From: Alphaproteobacteria bacterium
GTDB taxonomy: Bacteria > Pseudomonadota > Alphaproteobacteria > Bin95
Assembly: GCA_964291285.2 (NCBI GenBank)
Contig: OZ219785.1
Coordinates: 608,001-672,000 of the forward strand
Reading direction: 5' to 3'
Length of the DNA stretch: 64,000 bases
The position numbers and the translations under genes are program-made. A model generated the notes under the pieces. That model saw nothing but the letters and a program-made list of their open reading frames with translations, was not told where the DNA came from and did not search any database. Below are positions 37,377 to 47,180 of the stretch, in pieces (within the stretch, counting starts at the first letter, position 1; the number at the start of each line of letters is the position of its first letter).

Positions 37377-38033
37377 TCACAGCCTCCGGAGGCGCTCGAA
37401 GCGATGCAGCATGAAGGCCGTGCCGAGCGCGGGGGCTGCGAGGTTGACGAGCGGCACGGTCATCAGCCAGGCGATGACGATGCCTGAGAGCCATATCCGG
37501 TAGCGGTAGCGGCGGCGAAGCGCGCGTGCGGCCTCCGGGCCGAACCGGCGGAGCGCGGCCGCCTCGAAATACTCCCGCCCGCAGAGCCAGCCGTTCAGGA
37601 GCCAGAACAACAGGAGCCCCAAGGGGGGCACGAACAGCCAGACCGGCAGCAGCAGGAGGTTGATGCCGAGCGCGGCCCCGGCGAAGAAGGCGGTCTGCCG
37701 GAGCGTTTCGCCCCAGCCCTGCGCCCCGGGCGGCCCGAGACCCGGATAGTGGCGGGCTTCGACGGCGCTTGCGGCGCGCTCCAGGAACAGGCCCTGCAAG
37801 GCGGCGGCCGCGGCCGGGAAGAGCATCGCGCCCGCCGCCAGCGCCGCCGCGCCTCCGGCAAGCCCCGCCGCGACGTCGAGCCAGCCGACGCCGGTGAGTC
37901 CGCCAAGCGCCCATCCGGCGCCTGCCGCGAGCGCGGCCAGCAGCAGCGCGGCGAGCAGGCAGGACAGCAGCACCACGCGGCGGAAGCGCCGGTCGGAAAG
38001 TTGCACGAAAGCCTTGAAGAGGTCGGCGATCAA
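37377..38033 (-). CDS. EI24/CysZ-like membrane protein
   Basis: Hydrophobic; VEARHYP, NGWLCGREYFE, VPLVNLAAP; TTG start overlapping the upstream stop. Confidence 0.82.
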   Translation of the reverse strand: MIADLFKAFVQLSDRRFRRVVLLSCLLAALLLAALAAGAGWALGGLTGVGWLDVAAGLAGGAAALAAGAMLFPAAAAALQGLFLERAASAVEARHYPGLGPPGAQGWGETLRQTAFFAGAALGINLLLLPVWLFVPPLGLLLFWLLNGWLCGREYFEAAALRRFGPEAARALRRRYRYRIWLSGIVIAWLMTVPLVNLAAPALGTAFMLHRFERLRRL

Positions 38034-38397
38034 GGTGCAGCGTCTTCCTCGAAGCCGTAGGCGCGGGCGAGAAGCCGGACCGGGTGCTCGACCGTCCGGG
38101 CCGGGGCGCCGGGAGCGAGCCGCTCCATGCCCTGCGCGATATGCAGCGCGGCGAGCGGGCATTCGGAGACCACATGACCGCCCGCCTCCAGCGCCCGCTG
38201 CGCGGTCGGGCGACCGAGGCGGAGCGCGATCTCGAAATTGTCCTTGAGGCAGCCCCGGAAGCCGCCATGGCCGGAGCAGCGCTCGATGACCTCGACGGCC
38301 GTGTCGGGAATGAGCTCCAGGAGTTCGACTGCCTTGCGCCCCATGTTCTGGGCGCGGGCATGGCAGGGGATATGGACCACGACCGGCCCGTCGAGGC
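38030..38397 (-). pseudogene. Fe-S oxidoreductase (GlpC/CCG-domain) C-terminal remnant cut by IS21
   Basis: HIPCHARAQNMG, ERCSGHGG, SECPLA, HPVRLLARAYG; upstream sequence replaced by the IS21 end. Confidence 0.82.
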
Positions 38398-39042
38398 TGT
38401 AGGTGACGGTCGTAAAAGGCGCTTATTTGCTGGCGTTGCGCGTTTTTGCGGGGCGTGATGATCGCAGTGATTGTGGTGCGGCGGTGTTTGTGACGGGGGC
38501 CTGGGACGGAAGGAGGGCGTAGCCCGACTGGAGTCGCCGGCCCCCGTCGCGTTGATATTTTCGCCTGCCGAGGGGAGGGTGTCCTGGCGCTGTCGGCGGG
38601 GGTCGCCGGGCTGCGCGAGGGGGTAGACTGGGGCTGCTGAGAACGATGCGGCGCCGGCCCCGTTTGCTAGGTGGCAACGACCGGCGCCGCACCCCCCGAG
38701 CCATGCAAGGCACGGCCCGTATGCGCAGTATCGTAGGCGTTCGGGCGTGGGTCCACCCCGTTCTCATCGGTCTTTGCGATGAGGAACGCCGCCCGCCTGT
38801 TCACCTGCGCTTCGTGCCATCGCCAGGTTGTGCTGTGCCGGCGGTGCGACCACGGCAACATCTACTGCTCGCGTCCGTGCAGCGGCCGGGCGCGGCGGCG
38901 CTCGCTGCGCCTTGCCGGGCGTCGCTACCAGAACAGCCGGCGGGGCCGTCACAAGCATGCCGAACGCCAGCGGCGCTACCGCGAGCGCCGTCGCGTCCGT
39001 GCGCCTGAGGAGGGGCGCCGTGCGCAGAAAGTGACGCATCAC

Positions 39043-40738
39043 CCTAAATCCGGCAGTTGAGGATGGCTTGGCCTTGCCGAATCCCTTGTAGTCTGCGGGT
39101 ATGAGCGGCTTTTCAGGGGCCGAAGAGGCTCACCCTTTGGGTGATTATCCTGGCGCTGTGCGGGATGTCGCCCGAGCGTCGGTGAAGGTGGACACCTTCG
39201 GCGGCGCGGTTCATGTGGAATGGGACCCTGATGCGGCGGTGACGCCGCTGGGGCATCTGGCGTTTTTCTCGGAATACCTGAAGGTAAGCGGTCGCTTTGA
39301 CGCTTTGGTTGCGGACTGCCCGCTGCACTACACGAGCCCGAACGCGCCGTCGAAGCGGGATGTCCTGGGGACGGTTCTTCTGTCGGTTCTGGCGGGGCAG
39401 TCTCGCTATGCGCACATCACGTCGCTGCGCGGCGACGGGGTGAACCCTGCGCTGCTGGGTATGGACAAGGTTGCGAGCGAGGATTCGGTGCGGCGCGGTC
39501 TGGAGCGGATCGGTGCGGATGTCGGCACATCGTGGCTTCAGGGCCATCTGGACGAGGTGGTCCGTCCGCTGCTGAGGGAGCCGTGGGTTCTGGACTGCGA
39601 CACGACGATCAAGGCGCTTTACGGTCGTCAGGAGGGGGCGGTTGTGAGCTACAACCCGAAGAAGCCGGGCCGCCCCTCGCATGCCTGCCATGCGTTCCTG
39701 ATGGCGGGCACGCGGCTTGTTCTGGATGTCGAGGTGGCGCCGGGCAACCATCACCATTCGAGGCGCGCGGCGCCGTCCTTGTGGGCGTTGCTCGACCGTC
39801 TCGGTCGGGATCGCTGGCCGCGTCTGGTGCGGGGCGATAAGGACTGGGGCAGCGAGGCCAACATGGCGTCGTGCGAGGCTGCGGGTCTGGACTATTTGTT
39901 CAAGCTGCGCCTGACGAAGGGGGCGCGCCGGCTTGCCGAGCGGCTGATGGTGCGGGACGGCTGGGAGGATGCAGGCCAGGGCTGGTCGGGGATCGGGGCC
40001 GATCTGCGTCTGCAGGGCTGGAGCCGGACGCGCCGGGTTGTGGTGCTGCGTCGGCGGCTTCCTGCGACGCTGGCGCTGACGCGTGGCGACAAGGCCCAGG
40101 GCGAGCTGTTCTGGACCGAGGCGCAGCCCGGCACCGGGGTGTGGGAGTTCGCGGTGCTGGCGACCTCGCTGGACCTGGAGATACGCTCGCTGGCCCAGCT
40201 CTACCGCGACCGGGCGGACGCGGAGAACGGCTTCGACGAGTTGAAGAACCAGTGGGGTTGGGGCGGCTTCACCACGCGCGACCTGACGCGCTGCCGGCAC
40301 ATGGCCCGGCTGATCGCGCTCATCTACAACTGGTGGAGCCTGTTCGTGCGCCTCGCCGACCCCGACCATCACCGCGAGGCGATCACCAGCCGGCCGCTGC
40401 TCCTGCACGGGGTTGCCCGCCAGACCCACCACGCCGGCCAGACCCGGCTGACGGTGACCTCCCATCACGGGCGTCGCAAGACGGTGATGGCGGCGCTGCG
40501 CCGGATCGCCGGCTTCTTCCGGTCGCTGACGCAAACTGCGGAGCAGTTGAGCGCCGGGGATCGCTGGCGCCGCATCCTCGCCGAGGCGCTCAGGAAATAC
40601 CTCCATGGCCGCGAACCGGGGCGTCAACCCTGGCTGCCGCCACCCAGGGCCGCGACCACGTGCTGAAATCCACGCCCAAATCCGACCGTTCACACTACCC
40701 CGAGACAGCGATCAAGCTCGTCAACTGCCGGATTTAGG
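39043..40738 (+). mobile_element. IS1380 family element
   Basis: Perfect TIR CCTAAATCCGGCAGTTGA; 5-bp TSD ATCAC at 39038-39042 and 40739-40743. Confidence 0.92.
39101..40666 (+). CDS. IS1380 family DDE transposase
   Basis: LDCDTT..LYG.QEGA..YNP.KPGRPSH, RGD, YRDRADAENGFDELKNQWG. Confidence 0.9.
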   Translation: MSGFSGAEEAHPLGDYPGAVRDVARASVKVDTFGGAVHVEWDPDAAVTPLGHLAFFSEYLKVSGRFDALVADCPLHYTSPNAPSKRDVLGTVLLSVLAGQSRYAHITSLRGDGVNPALLGMDKVASEDSVRRGLERIGADVGTSWLQGHLDEVVRPLLREPWVLDCDTTIKALYGRQEGAVVSYNPKKPGRPSHACHAFLMAGTRLVLDVEVAPGNHHHSRRAAPSLWALLDRLGRDRWPRLVRGDKDWGSEANMASCEAAGLDYLFKLRLTKGARRLAERLMVRDGWEDAGQGWSGIGADLRLQGWSRTRRVVVLRRRLPATLALTRGDKAQGELFWTEAQPGTGVWEFAVLATSLDLEIRSLAQLYRDRADAENGFDELKNQWGWGGFTTRDLTRCRHMARLIALIYNWWSLFVRLADPDHHREAITSRPLLLHGVARQTHHAGQTRLTVTSHHGRRKTVMAALRRIAGFFRSLTQTAEQLSAGDRWRRILAEALRKYLHGREPGRQPWLPPPRAATTC

Positions 40739-40915
40739 ATCACCCTTTGACCCGTTCACCGCGCCGTCCTGTTGTGGCGGGCATGCCGGCGGGGCGCTCG
40801 GGAAGGAGGCCCTTCGGACCCGACCGTCCCGCCGGAGTGTTCCGCTGCGATCACTGCGGGCGGTTCTGCGCCCGGGCGGTCTATCCGGGCCTGCGCCCGG
40901 CGCGAAGGGAGTGAG

Positions 40916-42421
40916 ATGGCGATCGACCAGCAGACCCGGGCCGAGATCCTGCGGCTGTATTTTGCCGAGAAGTGGCGGATCGGCACGATCGCGCGCCAGC
41001 TCGGCGTCCACCACGGCACGGTCGAGCGCGCGGTGGCGGCCGCCGGGGCGCCCACGCCTGAGAAGCGGCGCAGATCTTCGATGATCGATCCGTTCCTGCC
41101 CTTCGTCCGCCAGACCCTGGCGGTCTGGCCGAAGTTGCCCTCCAGCCGGCTCTACCGGATGGCGGTCGAGCGCGGTTACCGGGGGTGCGAGAGCCACTTC
41201 CGGCGCATGATCGCGCCCGAGCGTCCGCGGCCGGTGGCCGAGGCCTATCTGCGCCTCAAGGCCCTGCCCGGCGAGCAGGCCCAGGTCGACTGGGCCCACT
41301 TCGGCAAGGTGAGGATCGGGCGTGCGGAGCGCCCGCTGATGGCCTTCGTGATGGTGCTCGGCCACTCGCGCCGCCTCTTCCTGCGCTTCTACCTCAACGC
41401 CGGGATGGACAACTTCCTGCGCGGCCATGTCGAGGCCTTCGAGGCTTGGCAGGGCGTGCCCCGCGAGCTCTGGTACGACAATCTGAAGAGCGTCGTGCTG
41501 GAGCGGCGCGGCGACGCCATCCGCTTCAATCCCCGGCTTCTCGACTTCGCAGGCGCCTACCGCTTCCTGCCGAAGCCGGTCGCGGTCGCCCGAGGCAACG
41601 AGAAGGGCCGCGTCGAGCGGGCCATACGCTATGTGCGCGACAGCTTCTTCGCCGCCCGCGCCTGGCGTGACCTCGACGATCTCAACGCCCAGGCCCGGGA
41701 GTGGTGCGAGGGCGTCGCCGCCGACCGCCCCTGGCCGGACGACCGCTCCCTCACCGTGAGCGAGGCCTTCGAGCGCGAGCGCGGCTCCCTGATGGCGCTG
41801 CCCGACGACCGTCCCCCCGTCGACGAGAGGGTCGAGGTCAGGATCGCCAAGACCCCCTATGCCAGGTTCGACCTCAATGACTACAGCGTCCCGCATACCC
41901 ATGTCCGGCGCACCCTCACCGTGGCCGCGACGCTGGAAGAGGTGCGCATCCTCGACGGCATGGAGGTCATCGCCCGCCATCCGCGCAGCTTCGACAAGGC
42001 GGCCCGCATCGAGAACCCCGAACACATTGAGGAGCTGGTCAGGCGCAAGCGTCACGCCCGCAGCCTGCGCGGGCAGAGCCGGCTGCTCCAGGCCGCGCCC
42101 AACAGCGAGCGCCTGATCGCCGAGGCCGCCCCCCGCGGCGCTTATATCGGCGCCACCGTCGCCGCCCTGCTGCGCCTGCTCGACCAATACGGCGCCGCCG
42201 AGCTCGAAGCCGCCATCGACGAGGCCCTCGAACGCGGCGTCCCCCATCCCAATGCCGTGCGCCTCAGCCTCACACGGCGGCGCGAACTGCAGGACAGGCC
42301 GCCGCCGATCCCCATCGACCTGCCCAGGGACCCGCGCGTGCGCGACATCGCCGTGCGCGATCACGATCTCGGCGGATACGACGGGCTGGCCGGCTACCAT
42401 GAAAAGGACAGCGAAGAATGA
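40916..42421 (+). CDS. istA: IS21 transposase IstA
   Basis: HTH, PGEQAQVDW, YDNLK, EKGRVER, FDLNDYSVP. Confidence 0.94.
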   Translation: MAIDQQTRAEILRLYFAEKWRIGTIARQLGVHHGTVERAVAAAGAPTPEKRRRSSMIDPFLPFVRQTLAVWPKLPSSRLYRMAVERGYRGCESHFRRMIAPERPRPVAEAYLRLKALPGEQAQVDWAHFGKVRIGRAERPLMAFVMVLGHSRRLFLRFYLNAGMDNFLRGHVEAFEAWQGVPRELWYDNLKSVVLERRGDAIRFNPRLLDFAGAYRFLPKPVAVARGNEKGRVERAIRYVRDSFFAARAWRDLDDLNAQAREWCEGVAADRPWPDDRSLTVSEAFERERGSLMALPDDRPPVDERVEVRIAKTPYARFDLNDYSVPHTHVRRTLTVAATLEEVRILDGMEVIARHPRSFDKAARIENPEHIEELVRRKRHARSLRGQSRLLQAAPNSERLIAEAAPRGAYIGATVAALLRLLDQYGAAELEAAIDEALERGVPHPNAVRLSLTRRRELQDRPPPIPIDLPRDPRVRDIAVRDHDLGGYDGLAGYHEKDSEE

Positions 42422-43212
42422 CCGACACCCTCATGAACCGCGCCCGCGCGCTGGGCCTGCACGGCCTCCTCGCCCATTGGGGCGAAGTCGCGGAGCGCGA
42501 CTGGCTCGCCTCCCTGATCGCGTGGGAAGAAGATGAGAAGCGCGCCCGAAGCCTCAAACGCCGCCTCGCCGACGCCCGCCTCGGACAGTTCAAGCCGCTC
42601 GCAGACTTCGACTGGGACTGGCCAAGGCGCTGCGACCGCATGGCCGTCGAGGACCTCATGACCCTCGACTTCCTCAAGGAGGCCGCAAACCTCGTACTGG
42701 TCGGACCCAACGGCGTCGGAAAGTCCACCATCGCCGCCAATATCGCCCACCGCGCCGTCCTCGAAGGCCACATCGTGCGCTTCGCAACCGCCGCCAGCCT
42801 GCTCGGCGAACTCGCCGCCATCGACTCCGACACCCTGCTCCAGCGCAGGCTGCGCTTCTACGCCCGACAGCACCTGCTGGTCATCGACGAAGTCGGATAT
42901 CTCTCCTACTCCAACCGCCACGCCGACCTGCTGTTCAACATCGTCTCAAGCCGCAGCCAGCAGAACTCAACCATAATCACCACGAACCGCCCCTTCGCCG
43001 AGTGGAGCGAGGCCTTCCCAAACGCCGCCTGCCTGGTCGCCCTCGTCGACCGGCTCGTCCACAACGCCGAGATCGTCGCCATCGACGGCGACTCCTGGCG
43101 CCGCAAGGAAGCCGAGGAACGTCAGAAGCAGCGCAGCGCCGAACGCCGCCGCCGGCGCGGACCGAAAGCCGGGCAAAGCACTGGAAAGGCGAACCCGGTC
43201 CCGTCGCCATAG
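42418..43212 (+). CDS. istB: IS21 helper ATPase IstB
   Basis: GPNGVGKS, LVIDEVGY, TTN..F.EW, DRLVH, GDSWR. Confidence 0.95.
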   Translation: MTDTLMNRARALGLHGLLAHWGEVAERDWLASLIAWEEDEKRARSLKRRLADARLGQFKPLADFDWDWPRRCDRMAVEDLMTLDFLKEAANLVLVGPNGVGKSTIAANIAHRAVLEGHIVRFATAASLLGELAAIDSDTLLQRRLRFYARQHLLVIDEVGYLSYSNRHADLLFNIVSSRSQQNSTIITTNRPFAEWSEAFPNAACLVALVDRLVHNAEIVAIDGDSWRRKEAEERQKQRSAERRRRRGPKAGQSTGKANPVPSP

Positions 43213-43214
43213 CC

Positions 43215-44087
43215 ATGCATCCCTCCCGCCCCCGCGAGCGGCGGGTGCGGGCCGAGAGCCTGCGGGGCTATCCCCTCGAACCCGTCGCCCGAGCCCTCGG
43301 CTACCGCAGCGATCCCGACAATGCCGTGCGCTGGAGACGGCCAGGATCGGTCCTCTCCATCAACCGCTTCATGTTCTACGACCATCTGCGCGCAGAGGAG
43401 GGAGCCGGGGCTATCGAACTGGCGGTCCATGCGCTCGGATGCACCCCGCCGGACGCCATCGACTTCCTCGCCGAACTGTCCGACCTCTCAATGCCCCCAG
43501 GCGGCCGCCGGCAGGCGCCGGCCAAGGACCCCCGCTGGCCCAACCTCCGGCGATACCTCGTCGAGCGGCGCGGCCTCGCGGACGCGCTCGTCACCCTGTG
43601 CCGCGACCTCGGCCTGGTCCATGCCGACCCTCACGGCAACCCCGTGTTCGTCCGCCGAAACGCCGCCGGCGAGGCTACCGGCATCGAAACCGTCACCGCT
43701 GACCGCAAAACGACCGCGGGCGGCGGCTTCTGGATGTCCTGGGAGACCGAATGGCCACACGCCGTCATCCTGGACGGCAACGCCCTCGACGCACTCTCCA
43801 TCCTCTCCCTCCACCTCGGCCCGGTAAAACGCACCGAATGCGCCACCGTCTCCACCGGCGCCGTCGCCACCAAAGTCCCCAAATGGATCGAGGCATGGAA
43901 CCCGCGCCTCATCTTCTGTGCATACGACGCCACCACAAACGGCGATCACGCCGCAAGGCGCCTCGCCCGCAACGACACCAGAATCGTCCGGCTGCGACCC
44001 GCACTCGACAACCGGGACTGGAACGACATGCTCATCCGCGACCGAGCCGGCGAACCAATCGAAACCGATGACCAACAGATCAACTGA
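43215..44087 (+). CDS. DUF3991/Toprim primase-like protein (IS21 cargo)
   Basis: GAGAIELAVH, YLVERRGL, NPVF, LDALS, CAYD...GD.AA, DWND. Confidence 0.75.
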   Translation: MHPSRPRERRVRAESLRGYPLEPVARALGYRSDPDNAVRWRRPGSVLSINRFMFYDHLRAEEGAGAIELAVHALGCTPPDAIDFLAELSDLSMPPGGRRQAPAKDPRWPNLRRYLVERRGLADALVTLCRDLGLVHADPHGNPVFVRRNAAGEATGIETVTADRKTTAGGGFWMSWETEWPHAVILDGNALDALSILSLHLGPVKRTECATVSTGAVATKVPKWIEAWNPRLIFCAYDATTNGDHAARRLARNDTRIVRLRPALDNRDWNDMLIRDRAGEPIETDDQQIN

Positions 44088-44147
44088 AAAACCGCAACCG
44101 GCCGAAAAATGTCAGCGAATAGGCGCGCTCTGTAACCGTCGCTAACA

Positions 44148-45328
44148 TCTGTGGCCCAGAGGCAGACGAGGCTGTAGAGCCCGCAGAGGACGGGGGTGGT
44201 TCGTGCGATCGCCGCGTGTGACCACTGGCGTTGTGTTTCGAGCCCGAGATGGGCGCGCAGTTCCTGGAAGGTGACCTCGACCTGCCAGCGCCGCACGAAG
44301 GTGGCGATGATCTTGGCCGGCTCCATGTTGGTGTCGGTGCAGAAGAACGCCTGCGGGTCCCGCTCGCCTTCCGGGTCTCGCACCAGCACCCATCGGATGG
44401 CCTTGGGAGGTGTGCCGGGACGATACCAGAGCGCGGTATCGGAGATGATCTGGAGTGTCTTTTCCTTCGAACTTCCGTACCAGCGCGGAAGCGTGATGCT
44501 TGTCCAGCGGGCATCGGGGTCGTCAAGGCGGGTCTGGAGCTTGGGCAGGGGCGGCCCCTTTTGCCGGGGTCGACCGCGTTTGTTCGGGTCGCGCGGCGGC
44601 GGGGGCGCGAAGAGGTTGGCATCGAGCCTCAGCCTGCTGATGAGGGTTGCGCGCTGTCCGATGCGCCAGGCGAGTTCGTGGGTTCCGAAACTGCTGTCGG
44701 CGACGAAGACGATCGCGCGTTGCGGGACCCAGCGAAGGATTTGAAGCATGCCCTGTCGCGCCCAGTCGGTGAGTTGCTTGTGACGCCGGCCTTGCCTGGC
44801 GGCGAAGCGTTCGGACGGGGCCAGGATGGTCAGGAAGGGCAGGGCCCTGATGCCCGGCGACCAGGGCAGCGGGACAAGCAGCATGAAGCTGAGCCAGCGC
44901 AGCCCGCTGGTCTTGACGAAATGGCCATGGCTGGAACGCACCGGGTCGCGATAGATGCCGCGCGCCTTGATACGCGCGCCCCAGCGGCGCTCGATGGTGT
45001 CATCGAGCCCGATGATGATCGGTCCCTGCCCGGCAAGCCGCGCCACCAGCACGAGCACGAGCCGGCGTGAAAGGTCACGCGGGTCCCAGCGGGCGCGATT
45101 GAGAACCTGATGGCAGGACGAGAATGTCTCGCACATCGCCCGCCCGGTCACCCGCAGGCAGGCCGACACGGTTCTCTTGCCCGGCGCCAGCAACGCTCCC
45201 ATGACCAGAACCGCCACCAGCCGCCAGGTCGGGGATGAGAAGGCGCCTCGAAAGGGCTCCAGCCAGTCGATCAGGAACGGCGGAACCGGATCGCCGATGG
45301 CGCTCGAAGGGTCGTCGAAATGTGTCAT
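44148..45328 (-). pseudogene. IS701-like transposase, C-terminus removed at the IS21 right end
   Basis: GALLAPGKRTV, LDDTIERRWG..I..RGIYRDPVRSS, ADSSF, RWQVEVTFQE. Confidence 0.87.
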
Positions 45329-45437
45329 GACGACCTTCGAATCCAGAAGCATCCGGCATGCAAGGGCGCCCGCATGCGACCGGGTGAATCAGCATCGCTG
45401 CAGCGACAGAAGCCATCCAATCCGATATCACTGCTTC

Positions 45438-45725
45438 ATGGCCGCATCCGACCCCTGTCTGGCGCGCATCGAAGCGTTCAACAAATCCAGGGGCGGGGGC
45501 GTGACGGTCACCAGGGTGCGCGGCGGCTACAATCTGTATCTCACGGCCACGCAGGCACCGATCGCAAGGCTCCAGCCGAAAGGCTCAGGTGACAAGATGA
45601 GGGTGCGCTACTGGTCCTGGCGCCAGTCCTGGCAGGACGTCGGAGACATGGGGGGCATCGTGCTCCCGCTCGAACAGGCCCTCGACAAAATCGCCAAAAA
45701 CGAGATCTTCTGGACATGGACGTGA
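45438..45725 (+). CDS. Small hypothetical passenger protein inside the IS701-like element
   Basis: 95 aa, divergent from the transposase, followed by the IS end TGTACAAAGTCGAGCTTAG (~45734-45752). Confidence 0.6.
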   Translation: MAASDPCLARIEAFNKSRGGGVTVTRVRGGYNLYLTATQAPIARLQPKGSGDKMRVRYWSWRQSWQDVGDMGGIVLPLEQALDKIAKNEIFWTWT

Positions 45726-45764
45726 GGTAATTTTGTACAAAGTCGAGCTTAGAAAGAAGCGCTG

Positions 45765-47021
45765 TCATACGACCCGAGGTGGTAATTCCAGGTTGTGGTT
45801 ACCGACCTCATTTCTGTACTGCTGGAGTATCTCACTCTCGGTACACTGTGATCGGCCCAGCATGTACAGAAGCAACTCCAGGAGGGAGCCCCTCTTGAAC
45901 CGGCGGATAGTACGAGTGTCAGGGTTCCACATCAGCCCGGCATATGGACTATGGCCTAGATTCCTCGGGAGTTTGGCCGTTTCGCCGACCGCATCGGCGA
46001 GGCTCATTTCGTGTGTGAGCCGCGCGATGATCGTGACGAACATGATCAGACCGACGGGGCGGAAGAGAGCACTTTCATTCCTGAACCGGCGGACAATTGT
46101 CTCAGTATCCTCTGCGGAGAAGAAGTTGCCCAATTCGGGGAAGCCTGCGGCGAGCGCCTCGAAGAGTTCCCTGGCATGCTGGTAATAGGCATTCAGCTGG
46201 TCGTCGTCCGGCCTGGATTTCTTCAGCTTGCCGGCCGAGGAGCGCAAGGCAATGTTAGCCTGCGTAAACCAGGTGAGCAAAATGTCATAGAGGTTAACTA
46301 TGGTGGTGAGACTAGTGAAGTTGGTCGACGGCATGTTGCTGGAACCAACAAAGGCGATGCGGTCATCACCGAACATGTCGGGATTTTCGTCGATCAGCCA
46401 GCGGACGGTCAACGCCATGACGTCGTCCTCATCGAGCGCGATGACATCAAACTTGGAGACCGGTTTGGCCGTCTTGTTCAAGGTCGTGAAAAGACGTCGG
46501 GTTCTGCGCAGGCCTTGGTCTGATTTTTCATGCGCCACGAACATGACGGGGACCTCGTCAGTCGGAGCAACGATGCTTCTTTCCTCGACGGCGGCTTTGA
46601 TTCCGGACAACCGGTGCTGCCCATCGAGTGCGAAGAGCTTTTCGTCTCCACGCAGGGTTAGAAAGCCGACAGACAGCATGATATCAGAAGTCAGGATATC
46701 GAGTTCGTTCGGGCTTCCCTTTCTCTGGACGTTGGTAAGGGGGTGCCAGTTCGGTTGGCCGCCATAGGTGGCAACAACGAGGGCGTTGAATAGGCGGTCT
46801 GGTTGGGTCGCTAGGTAACTGGCGATCTCTTTGGACCGCATCTCTTTCAGCTGGCGTTGGATCATCTCCGAGAGCCGTTCGCTCTTGTGGAGTTCGTCGG
46901 CGTAGTCAACCCTCGTTGCCAAGGTGGACAAGTCGACCAAGCAGCAGTAATAGACCCAGTTGCCCATCGTGCCGCGAAGGGCGGGAAGTACAATCGAACC
47001 GGACATGCTATCGTCAATCAT
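45765..47021 (-). CDS. DGQHR-domain (DndB-like) protein
   Basis: IQRQL, FALDGQHRL, RRLFTTLNKTAKPV; lower GC. Confidence 0.88.
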   Translation of the reverse strand: MIDDSMSGSIVLPALRGTMGNWVYYCCLVDLSTLATRVDYADELHKSERLSEMIQRQLKEMRSKEIASYLATQPDRLFNALVVATYGGQPNWHPLTNVQRKGSPNELDILTSDIMLSVGFLTLRGDEKLFALDGQHRLSGIKAAVEERSIVAPTDEVPVMFVAHEKSDQGLRRTRRLFTTLNKTAKPVSKFDVIALDEDDVMALTVRWLIDENPDMFGDDRIAFVGSSNMPSTNFTSLTTIVNLYDILLTWFTQANIALRSSAGKLKKSRPDDDQLNAYYQHARELFEALAAGFPELGNFFSAEDTETIVRRFRNESALFRPVGLIMFVTIIARLTHEMSLADAVGETAKLPRNLGHSPYAGLMWNPDTRTIRRFKRGSLLELLLYMLGRSQCTESEILQQYRNEVGNHNLELPPRVV

Positions 47022-47180
47022 GGGAACGCCGCCATCATCGCCGCTGTGTCGGCGTTGATATCGTTCTTGCAGCAAGGGGGCAGAAACGCGGTGATCAAAC
47101 GCTTCTCCATTGCCTCGAGTTCCGACGACGTGACGTTGTCGGACACGGGCGCGAAATGGAAACGCAGAATAGGGTGCCAG
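47018..47180 (-). pseudogene. C-terminal remnant of an upstream partner gene (GIY-YIG-like tail), cut by IS5
   Basis: Open frame WHPILRFHFAPV...LEAMEKRLITAFLPPCCKN...AF P* whose TGA overlaps the DGQHR ATG. Confidence 0.55.

Follow-up and report, generated by a model that had tools for sequence, protein, structure and literature searches.

Why should an insertion sequence (IS) of the IS21 family carry a primase-like gene directly behind its transposase and ATPase genes? The question is raised by positions 38398-44147 of a 64,000-nucleotide (nt) stretch of an alphaproteobacterial genome (contig OZ219785.1, positions 608,001 to 672,000; hereafter the window), which hold a single IS21-family copy with a unit length of 4,049 bp, split by a 1,696-bp IS1380-like insertion. 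The classical IS21 family has two genes, istA and istB, and IS21, described with the two proteins that they encode, serves as a model, both structural and biochemical, of how an ATPase regulates transposition. The element in the window has two further open reading frames (ORFs), a cysteine-rich ORF1 upstream of istA and a primase-like ORF4 downstream of istB. We find that all four genes move together and that ORF4, as judged from its alignments, is a catalytically degenerate primase that has been retained by selection. We propose, with about an even chance of being right, that it acts as a non-catalytic helper at a replication-linked step of IS21 transposition.

Four genes in one mobile IS21 unit

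A search of the host genome (6.1 Mb, 5 contigs) yielded 22 copies of the element, 18 of them uninterrupted at 4,049 bp (two uninterrupted copies measuring 4,058 bp because 9 nt are inserted in their leader) and 4 interrupted, together with one decayed copy (86-95% identity) and four solo end fragments. All 22 copies start with the bases TGTAGGTGACGG and finish with CCGTCGCTAACA, which coincide exactly with window positions 38398 and 44147. These common ends delimit a left terminal inverted repeat with a TG start (IRL, 38398..38442, + strand) and a right terminal inverted repeat with a CA end (IRR, 44103..44147, - strand), and the two termini match as inverted repeats at 29 of 45 positions, compared with a mean of 11.9 and a maximum of 22 in 2,000 shuffles. 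Perfect 5-bp target duplications flank 14 of the 22 copies and a 7-bp duplication flanks one more, within the 4-8 bp that is usual for IS21; the duplication is imperfect or offset in 3 copies and missing from 4. An earlier note on this DNA, made from the window sequence, had placed the four genes inside one imperfect TG...CA repeat pair enclosing about 4.05 kb once the IS1380-like insertion is removed, and the 22 copies confirm this layout: ORF1, IstA, IstB and ORF4 move as one unit. Because the 18 intact copies are near-identical (at least 99.7% identity, differing only at six single positions and by the 9-nt insert), their spread was recent, and the element has been recently active and has reached high copy number.

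The four genes of the window copy all lie on the + strand. ORF1 is interrupted by the IS1380-like insertion, which leaves a Cys- and Arg-rich first part with the pattern CxxC-x6-CxxC-x6-CxxxC (38779..39042) and a second part with KVTHHP...CxxCxxxC (40744..40914), the stop of which lies 1 nt ahead of the istA ATG. As it stands in the window the split gene reads as a 93-amino-acid (aa) Cys-rich ORF (38779-39060, + strand), and in naturally intact copies elsewhere in the genome ORF1 has 144 aa. The istA gene (40916..42421) encodes an IS21 DDE transposase of 501 aa, istB (42418..43212) an AAA+ helper ATPase of 264 aa, and ORF4 (43215..44087) a DnaG/gp4-type primase-like protein of 290 aa, an assignment drawn from Pfam, an AlphaFold2 (AF2) model, Foldseek, VIA and motif alignments. 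The gene junctions read TGA-G-ATG between ORF1 and istA, ATGA between istA and istB and TAG-CC-ATG between istB and ORF4; since they amount to 1 nt, an ATGA overlap and 2 nt from the istB stop to the ORF4 start, the four genes form a tightly coupled operon.

Family membership was assessed with profile models. IstA scored 244.4 bits against the NCBIfam model NF033546 (transpos_IS21, cut-off 160), with Pfam matches to Mu-transpos_C_2 (2.5e-24) and rve (1.4e-4), and IstB scored 208.1 bits against NF038214 (IS21_help_AAA, cut-off 200), with a Pfam match to IstB_IS21 (9e-55). The family traits of an istB gene directly after istA, imperfect TG...CA repeats and a short duplication are all present. 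Based on the equivalog scores, the TG...CA ends and the short duplications, the element belongs to the IS21 family; it departs from the family description in its coding content, with ORF1 and ORF4 inside the repeats of all 22 copies, and is a variant rather than an exclusion. The available portions of two IS21 papers describe just IstA and IstB (PMC11208146, PMC10122671), and the one listed paper in which DUF3991 and Toprim appear together concerns Bacteroidales conjugative elements. Our literature search found no published description of the four-gene arrangement for this well-studied family, none of an IS21 element with a primase-like gene and none joining IstB to toprim; a named entry in ISfinder or TnPedia may exist.

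Predicted fold and catalytic motifs of ORF4

Three parts can be delineated in ORF4: a zinc-binding-domain-like region (residues 1-92), DUF3991 (108-160) and Toprim (170-290). In Pfam searches DUF3991 was matched at 28.0 bits (cut-off 24.5) and Toprim_2 at 19.2 bits, which is under its cut-off of 22.1. The AF2 model, built from a 42-sequence alignment, had a mean predicted local distance difference test (pLDDT) score of 85.3 and a predicted template modelling (pTM) score of 0.82. When this model was compared with the PDB using Foldseek, 14 matches were obtained at E <=1e-3; ranks 1-10 and 14 are each occupied by a primase or a primase-helicase, the top match being the zinc-binding and polymerase domains of Aquifex DnaG (2au3, E 6e-6). 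VIA structural alignments paired the T7 gp4 primase (Z 12.5, 165 aligned residues, root-mean-square deviation 3.0) and DnaG cores (Z 10-11) with residues 103-290 of ORF4, and the DnaG zinc-binding domain 1d0q (Z 6.3, 85 aligned residues) with residues 4-91. Sequence identity to the solved primases is 12-18%. The model thus predicts for ORF4 the full architecture of a DnaG/T7-gp4-type primase, without a helicase-binding or helicase part.

The earlier note had described the acidic motifs of this protein as altered and DWND as kept, and comparison with 16 intact homologues proved that description right. Among 12 representative lineages carrying ORF4, the position of the catalytic Glu is occupied by G, D, A or K, and DxD reads D-[AT]-T, with Thr in place of the second Asp throughout and N or Q in place of the first Asp in two lineages. 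DWND is mostly kept, the variants being SWND, GWNE and DWNG. The WRGM..GS.KD motif, which is invariant in the intact relatives, is gone from the ORF4 lineage, and the set of zinc-ligand Cys and His residues is absent from residues 1-92, where only H57 and C76 are conserved. By contrast, all 16 Toprim homologues compared from other transposon contexts have ESA[IV]DA, DAD..GD and DWN[DEN], and three proteins that are 37-43% identical to ORF4 (P0089, P0090 and P0092) keep ESA[IL]DA, DAD..GD and DWN[DE]; because these homologues retain the motifs, the loss of catalytic residues is specific to the ORF4 lineage. With the catalytic Glu and the second Asp of DxD both missing from the alignments, ORF4 appears to be catalytically degenerate.

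Conservation, selection and expression of ORF4

Scanning one genome per species with ORF4 as the seed identified 64 loci at 55-78% identity in 18 assemblies. The genome bins that carry ORF4 are labelled mostly Alphaproteobacteria, Thalassobaculaceae and Defluviicoccus, with a few Dehalococcoidia, Gemmatimonadota and Pseudomonadales, and three assemblies other than the one studied here hold 19, 16 and 11 loci. The four genes occur in order and near full length at 51 of the 64 loci, and ORF4 is immediately preceded by istB or a remnant of it at 62; the remaining two comprise a locus truncated at a contig end and a decayed one. Together with the position of ORF4 inside the inverted repeats in 22 of 22 genomic copies, this placement directly after istB upholds the earlier suggestion of an IS21 subgroup that carries a primase-derived gene within its transposing unit. 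Apparent fusions of IstB or IstA to ORF4 (P0030, P0043, P0075 and P0077) were rejected as internal-deletion or frame artefacts.

None of the four genes contains an internal stop in any of the 12 representative lineages. Median ratios of nonsynonymous to synonymous substitution (dN/dS) over 66 pairs, calculated by the Nei-Gojobori method (NG86), were 0.24 for istB, 0.33 for istA, 0.40 for ORF1 and 0.57 for ORF4, values that are best read relative to istA and istB because NG86 is crude in DNA of 70% GC. Within ORF4 the ratio was 0.47 for the zinc-binding-domain-like part, 0.55 for Toprim, 0.87 for DUF3991 and about 1 for the linkers. Bootstrapping of one deep pair gave a range of 0.48-0.83 for ORF4, with 0 of 500 replicates at or above 1, and the GC content of ORF4 by codon position is 0.70/0.52/0.83 (GC3 > GC1 > GC2). 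Neutral decay, which the earlier note had named as evidence that would speak against its proposal, was not seen, given open frames in 12 of 12 lineages and the ORF4 median of 0.57. These comparisons indicate that ORF4 is a real, moderately constrained gene under purifying selection rather than in neutral decay, and that it has been kept open and selected through the entire diversification of the lineage. Two contigs from RNA libraries fall on ORF4 (X22, 243 nt with 1 mismatch; X23, 1,103 nt at about 84% identity), which is a weak hint of expression, as DNA carry-over is possible and the comparison is without a silent control stretch.

Relatives with and without the primase-like gene

Homologues of ORF1 were found upstream of istA on Burkholderia sp. 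PAMC 28687 plasmid 1, Cupriavidus sp. P-10 pMTS3 and a Methylotuvimicrobium alcaliphilum plasmid, and further ORF1-IstA-IstB elements were present at three loci in 2 of 400 sampled genomes of the same class. These sister elements (the Toprim-less loci compared include L115, L116 and L118) are 50-62% identical to the window element in IstA and 52-66% identical in IstB, and they are without ORF4. For the three loci from the class sample, a CA end was identified in two and a TG start as well in one. IS21 relatives without the Toprim gene, a possibility that the earlier note had raised against itself, therefore exist, but only at this distance in IstA and with a different, small gene in the fourth position.

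The small fourth gene of the sister elements (L021:7694-7912, L022:7760-7951, L023:7691-7897 and L115:3007-3237, plus 25 database proteins in alignment A6) lies directly after istB and encodes an acidic protein of 63-80 aa with the core WTPEQALAVFELLDDLR. It was ruled out as a relative of ORF4, hhalign giving a probability of 0.3%. Of 29 sequences, 23 have a C-terminus of the form D-x-[SP]-F and one finishes in NDEIPF; DDDIPF forms the tail of the main single-stranded DNA-binding protein (SSB) of the host, and [DE]-x-IPF that of several SSB paralogues. As a lead only, the small acidic protein may imitate the C-terminal tail of SSB, through which replication and repair proteins are recruited. 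In the host genome itself the SSB family (PF00436) is matched 39 times, almost always above the cut-off and often in repeated groups with frames of 145-152 aa or 262-271 aa; this number, far above the usual one or few per bacterium, suggests the presence of many integrated plasmid-like or conjugative elements.

In a tree of ORF4 and its homologues the ORF4 lineage is monophyletic (support 100/100) and clusters with catalytically intact homologues at moderate support (85/75). Those nearest intact relatives follow genes for a DDE transposase (rve) and an AAA_25 ATPase rather than lying in relaxases, so the relaxase origin entertained in the earlier note is not supported. IstA of the window element is 54-62% identical to that of the Toprim-less, ORF1-bearing elements vs 27% to that of the other Toprim-bearing IS21 group. 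Because the nearest IS21 relatives carry ORF1 but an unrelated small fourth gene, ORF4 can be regarded as an acquisition: an ORF1-IstA-IstB ancestor without Toprim probably obtained it from an active-looking, transposon-borne primase, with catalysis probably being lost afterwards. The DUF3991/Toprim superfamily has 3,015 representatives at E <=1e-3, and plasmid homologues of ORF4 are mostly the C-terminal parts of MobV relaxases. In 400 other genomes of the phylum, PF13154 was found in 7, at 8 loci, none of which (0/8) has istA or istB within 1.5 kb. Toprim homologues unlinked to IS21, which the earlier note had also listed as contrary evidence, can thus be found, but only at identities of 31% or less.

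A metagenome scan seeded with the intact relatives identified 26 loci, and at 14 of these the Toprim gene is immediately preceded by istB. The lineage of the window element accounts for two of these 14. At the other twelve, IstB is 26-35% identical and IstA 23-32% identical (nine loci with enough upstream DNA) to the proteins of the window element, and the Toprim motifs are intact. A KorB-like gene takes the place of ORF1 at three of the distant loci, those at which a scan of the upstream ORF gave a match. At three loci of about 5.1 kb (L098:464-5571, L106:9-5113 and L113:18-5093), inverted repeats of 47-52 nt or a shared end motif enclose all four genes (KorB/ParB-like, IstA, IstB and intact DUF3991/Toprim), and the inverted repeats of this distant IS21 group contain doubled GCTCAG...TGACCC sites. 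Of the remaining 12 metagenome loci, six have the Toprim gene after a RecA/DnaB-like AAA_25 ATPase, a TniB-like AAA_22 ATPase or rve alone, and six are too short or are fragments. The former comprise L088 and L089 (rve, AAA_25 and a winged helix-turn-helix protein, rve accompanying AAA_25 at L089) and L095, L102, L109 and L112 (AAA_22, rve; at L109 an rve transposase alone lies upstream). We detected no convincing inverted repeats around the rve-AAA_25 or AAA_22 contexts in the available flanking DNA. Read from these gene orders, the primase-like gene seems to have joined transposons with a DDE transposase and an ATPase more than once, and always after the ATPase gene.

A putative helper at a replication-linked step

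IS21 is listed, in the available part of one source, among the families with circular intermediates, which presumably transpose by copy-out-paste-in with a 3'OH priming the circular copy (bioRxiv 10.1101/2023.06.07.543989). The accessible text of an IS21 structural paper names the same proposed pathway, describes IstB as a close paralogue of the helicase loader DnaC and likens IstA to MuA after strand transfer (PMC11208146). In lineages with intact motifs, an element-encoded primase would fit a replication step of this kind. For the element in the window, we judge the chances to be evenly balanced that ORF4 is a non-catalytic helper at a replication-linked step of transposition. Under this proposal ORF4 would be made together with IstB, would no longer synthesise primers and would bind DNA at a replication-dependent step, when the element is copied out or the strand-transfer product is repaired. 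At that point it could hold or recruit host replication proteins, or stabilise a forked or single-stranded intermediate. Retention of DNA or partner binding by ORF4 is suggested by its conservation, because the N-terminal domain of the template-binding type and the Toprim core are its best conserved parts. A complex prediction for IstB and ORF4, both entered as alignments, scored 0.10 vs a mark of 0.32; run without controls, it is silent on binding.

Several considerations count against the proposed helper role. ORF4 is not needed for IS21 chemistry, since sister elements without it are bounded by TG...CA, and it is the least constrained of the four genes, its DUF3991 subdomain approaching neutrality (about 0.87) on a measure that is itself crude at this GC content. 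Furthermore, all 64 loci were found via ORF4, so that members of the exact lineage without ORF4 would have escaped the scan; an IstA-based search of 400 genomes of the same class returned just more distant elements and no ORF4-less member of the exact lineage. Finally, four of what we take to be the six acidic positions of DnaG are still mostly acidic in ORF4, and residual metal binding is possible.

The alternative that survives best, itself unlikely, is that ORF4 regulates the transposase-ATPase pair by selecting targets, conferring immunity or acting as a brake on copy number. Target selection was one of the roles that the earlier note had suggested, next to gap repair and to replicating or mobilising the excised form. 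Tn7- and Tn5053-type elements have target-choice genes in the slot after the ATPase gene, dead enzymes often turn into regulators, and the translational coupling of ORF4 to istB would suit such a function. However, the 5-bp duplications and the flanks of the 22 copies reveal no common target sequence by eye, and the fold is that of a primase, without a known selector domain. A strong brake is also difficult to reconcile with 22 copies in this genome and with the 11 to 19 loci in each of three other assemblies.

It is quite unlikely that ORF4 is still an enzyme, whether a primase, another nucleotidyl-transferase or a nuclease, that primes or cuts during transposition by means of rearranged acidic residues. 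The whole primase fold is kept in a model of high confidence, the Asp of DALS and the Asp of GD remain, most lineages have the first Asp of DxD as well as DWND, and the relatives in other transposons look catalytically intact. Against this, the substitutions at the Glu position are not even conserved within the lineage, the second Asp of DxD is always Thr, the first Asp of DxD and DWND both vary, WRGM..GS.KD is gone and Toprim_2 stays under the Pfam cut-off.

A passenger function outside transposition, such as plasmid or conjugative transfer or interference with the replication proteins of the host or of phages, is decidedly unlikely. DUF3991/Toprim modules are common as MobV relaxase C-termini and on conjugative plasmids, the superfamily is large, and none of the eight DUF3991 loci in the 400 sampled genomes adjoins istAB. 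Nevertheless, every close homologue of ORF4 (at least 55% identity) is inside this IS and directly after istB, to which ORF4 is translationally coupled, and two or more unrelated IS21 lineages, as well as other modules pairing a DDE transposase with an ATPase, have a primase-like gene behind the gene for the ATPase, a recurrence that argues for a role tied to transposition. It is highly improbable that ORF4 is a functionless relic, open by chance in GC-rich DNA and in young copies, for although its dN/dS exceeds that of the other three genes and its catalytic residues are lost, and although long chance ORFs are common in 70% GC DNA, its frame is open in every lineage down to 55% amino-acid identity with frame-preserving length differences, dN/dS is below 1 in 500 of 500 bootstraps (one deep pair), codon-position GC is of the coding type and the fold model is confident.

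Leader, ORF1 and flanking DNA

The genes are preceded by a non-coding leader of 381 nt (38398..38778, + strand), the last ~170 nt of which are almost invariant across 13 lineages. In the leader alignment (A3) mean column identity is 80%, and the last ~170 nt are more conserved than the coding genes. The leader folded better than its shuffles (393-nt fold, z = -2.9), and the ORF1 start codon is predicted to pair with the final hairpin. Covariation does not establish a defined RNA structure, since only 1 of the 43 pairs predicted by RNAalifold has a compensatory change; an Rfam scan of the intact element gave no match at E up to 1. The conservation could equally be at the DNA level (IstA sites or a promoter) as at that of RNA structure. 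A promoter scan of the copy in the host genome returned 0 sites, and a CTGACA-16/17 nt-TA[GC]A[CG]T arrangement, noticed by eye in A3 ahead of the conserved ~170 nt, is found in 9 of the 13 lineages but not in the copies of the host genome.

ORF1 has nine Cys residues that are invariant in 14 sequences, as is KVTHHP. It matched no Pfam or NCBIfam family, and its Atlas matches are unnamed clusters. Its AF2 model is poor (pLDDT 57), being confident just for an Arg-rich helical hairpin at residues 32-73. At contig 1:1163630-1163761, an insertion of 132 bp that resembles a miniature element lies precisely between the stop of ORF1 and the start of istA in one IS21 copy.

The IS1380-like element that splits ORF1 in the window (39043..40738, + strand) is a secondary insertion outside the IS21 unit. 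It encodes a 521-aa DDE transposase (39101-40666, Pfam DDE_Tnp_1_4 4e-18), has 21-nt terminal repeats that are 95% complementary and is flanked by an ATCAC duplication (39038-39042 and 40739-40743). It has 44 BLAST matches in the genome, at least 14 of them at 100% identity, and the IS21 copy at contig 4:400813 has another copy of this IS1380-like element within its ORF4. The right end of the window copy is abutted by a 1.6-kb DDE_5 (IS701-like) element (44148-45753) with at least 18 near-identical copies in the genome. Its transposase frame has no stop before the element end and extends 200 nt into IS21, which accounts for a 468-aa ORF at 43946-45352. Beyond this IS cluster, in DNA of lower GC content (0.54-0.58), a gene at 45765-47075 (- strand) encodes a 436-aa DndB-family protein (Pfam 5e-25) and may lie where a DNA-modification or defence island begins.

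The window copy belongs to the four that have no target duplication; its flanks are GAGGC on the left and TCTGT on the right, and no duplication was found when we looked for it beyond the adjoining 1.6-kb IS. Its left flank (38030-38397) holds the 3' part of a CCG-domain gene, the 5' part of which is absent. The unduplicated flanks and the truncated gene point to a rearrangement or deletion at this copy. Two other copies without a duplication are located on contig 4 (400813-406562 and 645215-649263) in inverted orientation about 245 kb apart, and their flanking pentamers are swapped (CTTCC/CCCTG and CCCTG/CTTCC), the signature of a ~245-kb inversion through recombination between the copies. 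IS21 copies therefore also drive genome rearrangement in this organism.

Comparison with known systems

The element resembles IS21 and IS5376 in its overlapping istA and istB (ATGA), imperfect TG...CA ends, 5-bp duplications and multiple copies. It differs from both in having ORF1 upstream and the primase-like ORF4 downstream of these genes inside the repeats, a conserved 381-nt leader and a total length of 4.05 kb. With the Toprim-less sister elements it shares a Cys-rich ORF1 homologue upstream of istA and similar TG...CA ends, whereas their fourth gene encodes the small acidic protein in place of the primase-like ORF4. The lineage is highly proliferative, is present in many marine and sponge-associated Alphaproteobacteria bins and has kept its two extra genes for its entire history.

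At the protein level, ORF4 is predicted to combine a zinc-binding-domain-like module, an N-terminal polymerase subdomain and Toprim, as do DnaG, the primase half of T7 gp4 and the N-terminal half of Twinkle. Unlike these DnaG-type primases, ORF4 is without the zinc ligands, the catalytic Glu and a helicase-binding or helicase domain, and its DxD has become D-x-T. Other DDE-plus-ATPase modules likewise have a primase-like gene directly after the ATPase gene. Theirs have intact Toprim motifs, their IstA proteins are 23-32% identical to that of the window element, and some have AAA_25 or AAA_22 in place of IstB. A primase turned pseudo-enzyme, with active versions in the same slot elsewhere, makes the supply of replication functions at the transposition intermediate directly testable.

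More broadly, and tentatively, transposons with a DDE transposase and an ATPase (IS21 clades, Tn552-like and related elements) may repeatedly have recruited a replication-interface protein of their own after the ATPase gene. This would be an active DnaG-like primase for self-primed copy-out or replicative transposition in some, a small protein resembling an SSB tail in the sister IS21 elements and, in the element described here, a primase adaptor devoid of catalysis that tethers the IstA-IstB transpososome to host replication proteins. If this is true, ORF4 would represent a transposon-encoded replisome-recruitment module, which is absent from current models of IS21 transposition.

A functional parallel is offered by IEE, which is encoded outside the insertion sequences on which it acts. 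Like ORF4 as proposed here, IEE is a primase-family protein functionally tied to self-copying insertion sequences and, according to the available part of the source, enhances the excision of those that transpose by copy-out-paste-in (bioRxiv 10.1101/2023.06.07.543989). The two differ in kind, IEE being a PrimPol-helicase with a primase of the archaeo-eukaryotic type, whereas ORF4 appears to be a DnaG-type, catalytically degenerate protein encoded by the insertion sequence itself.

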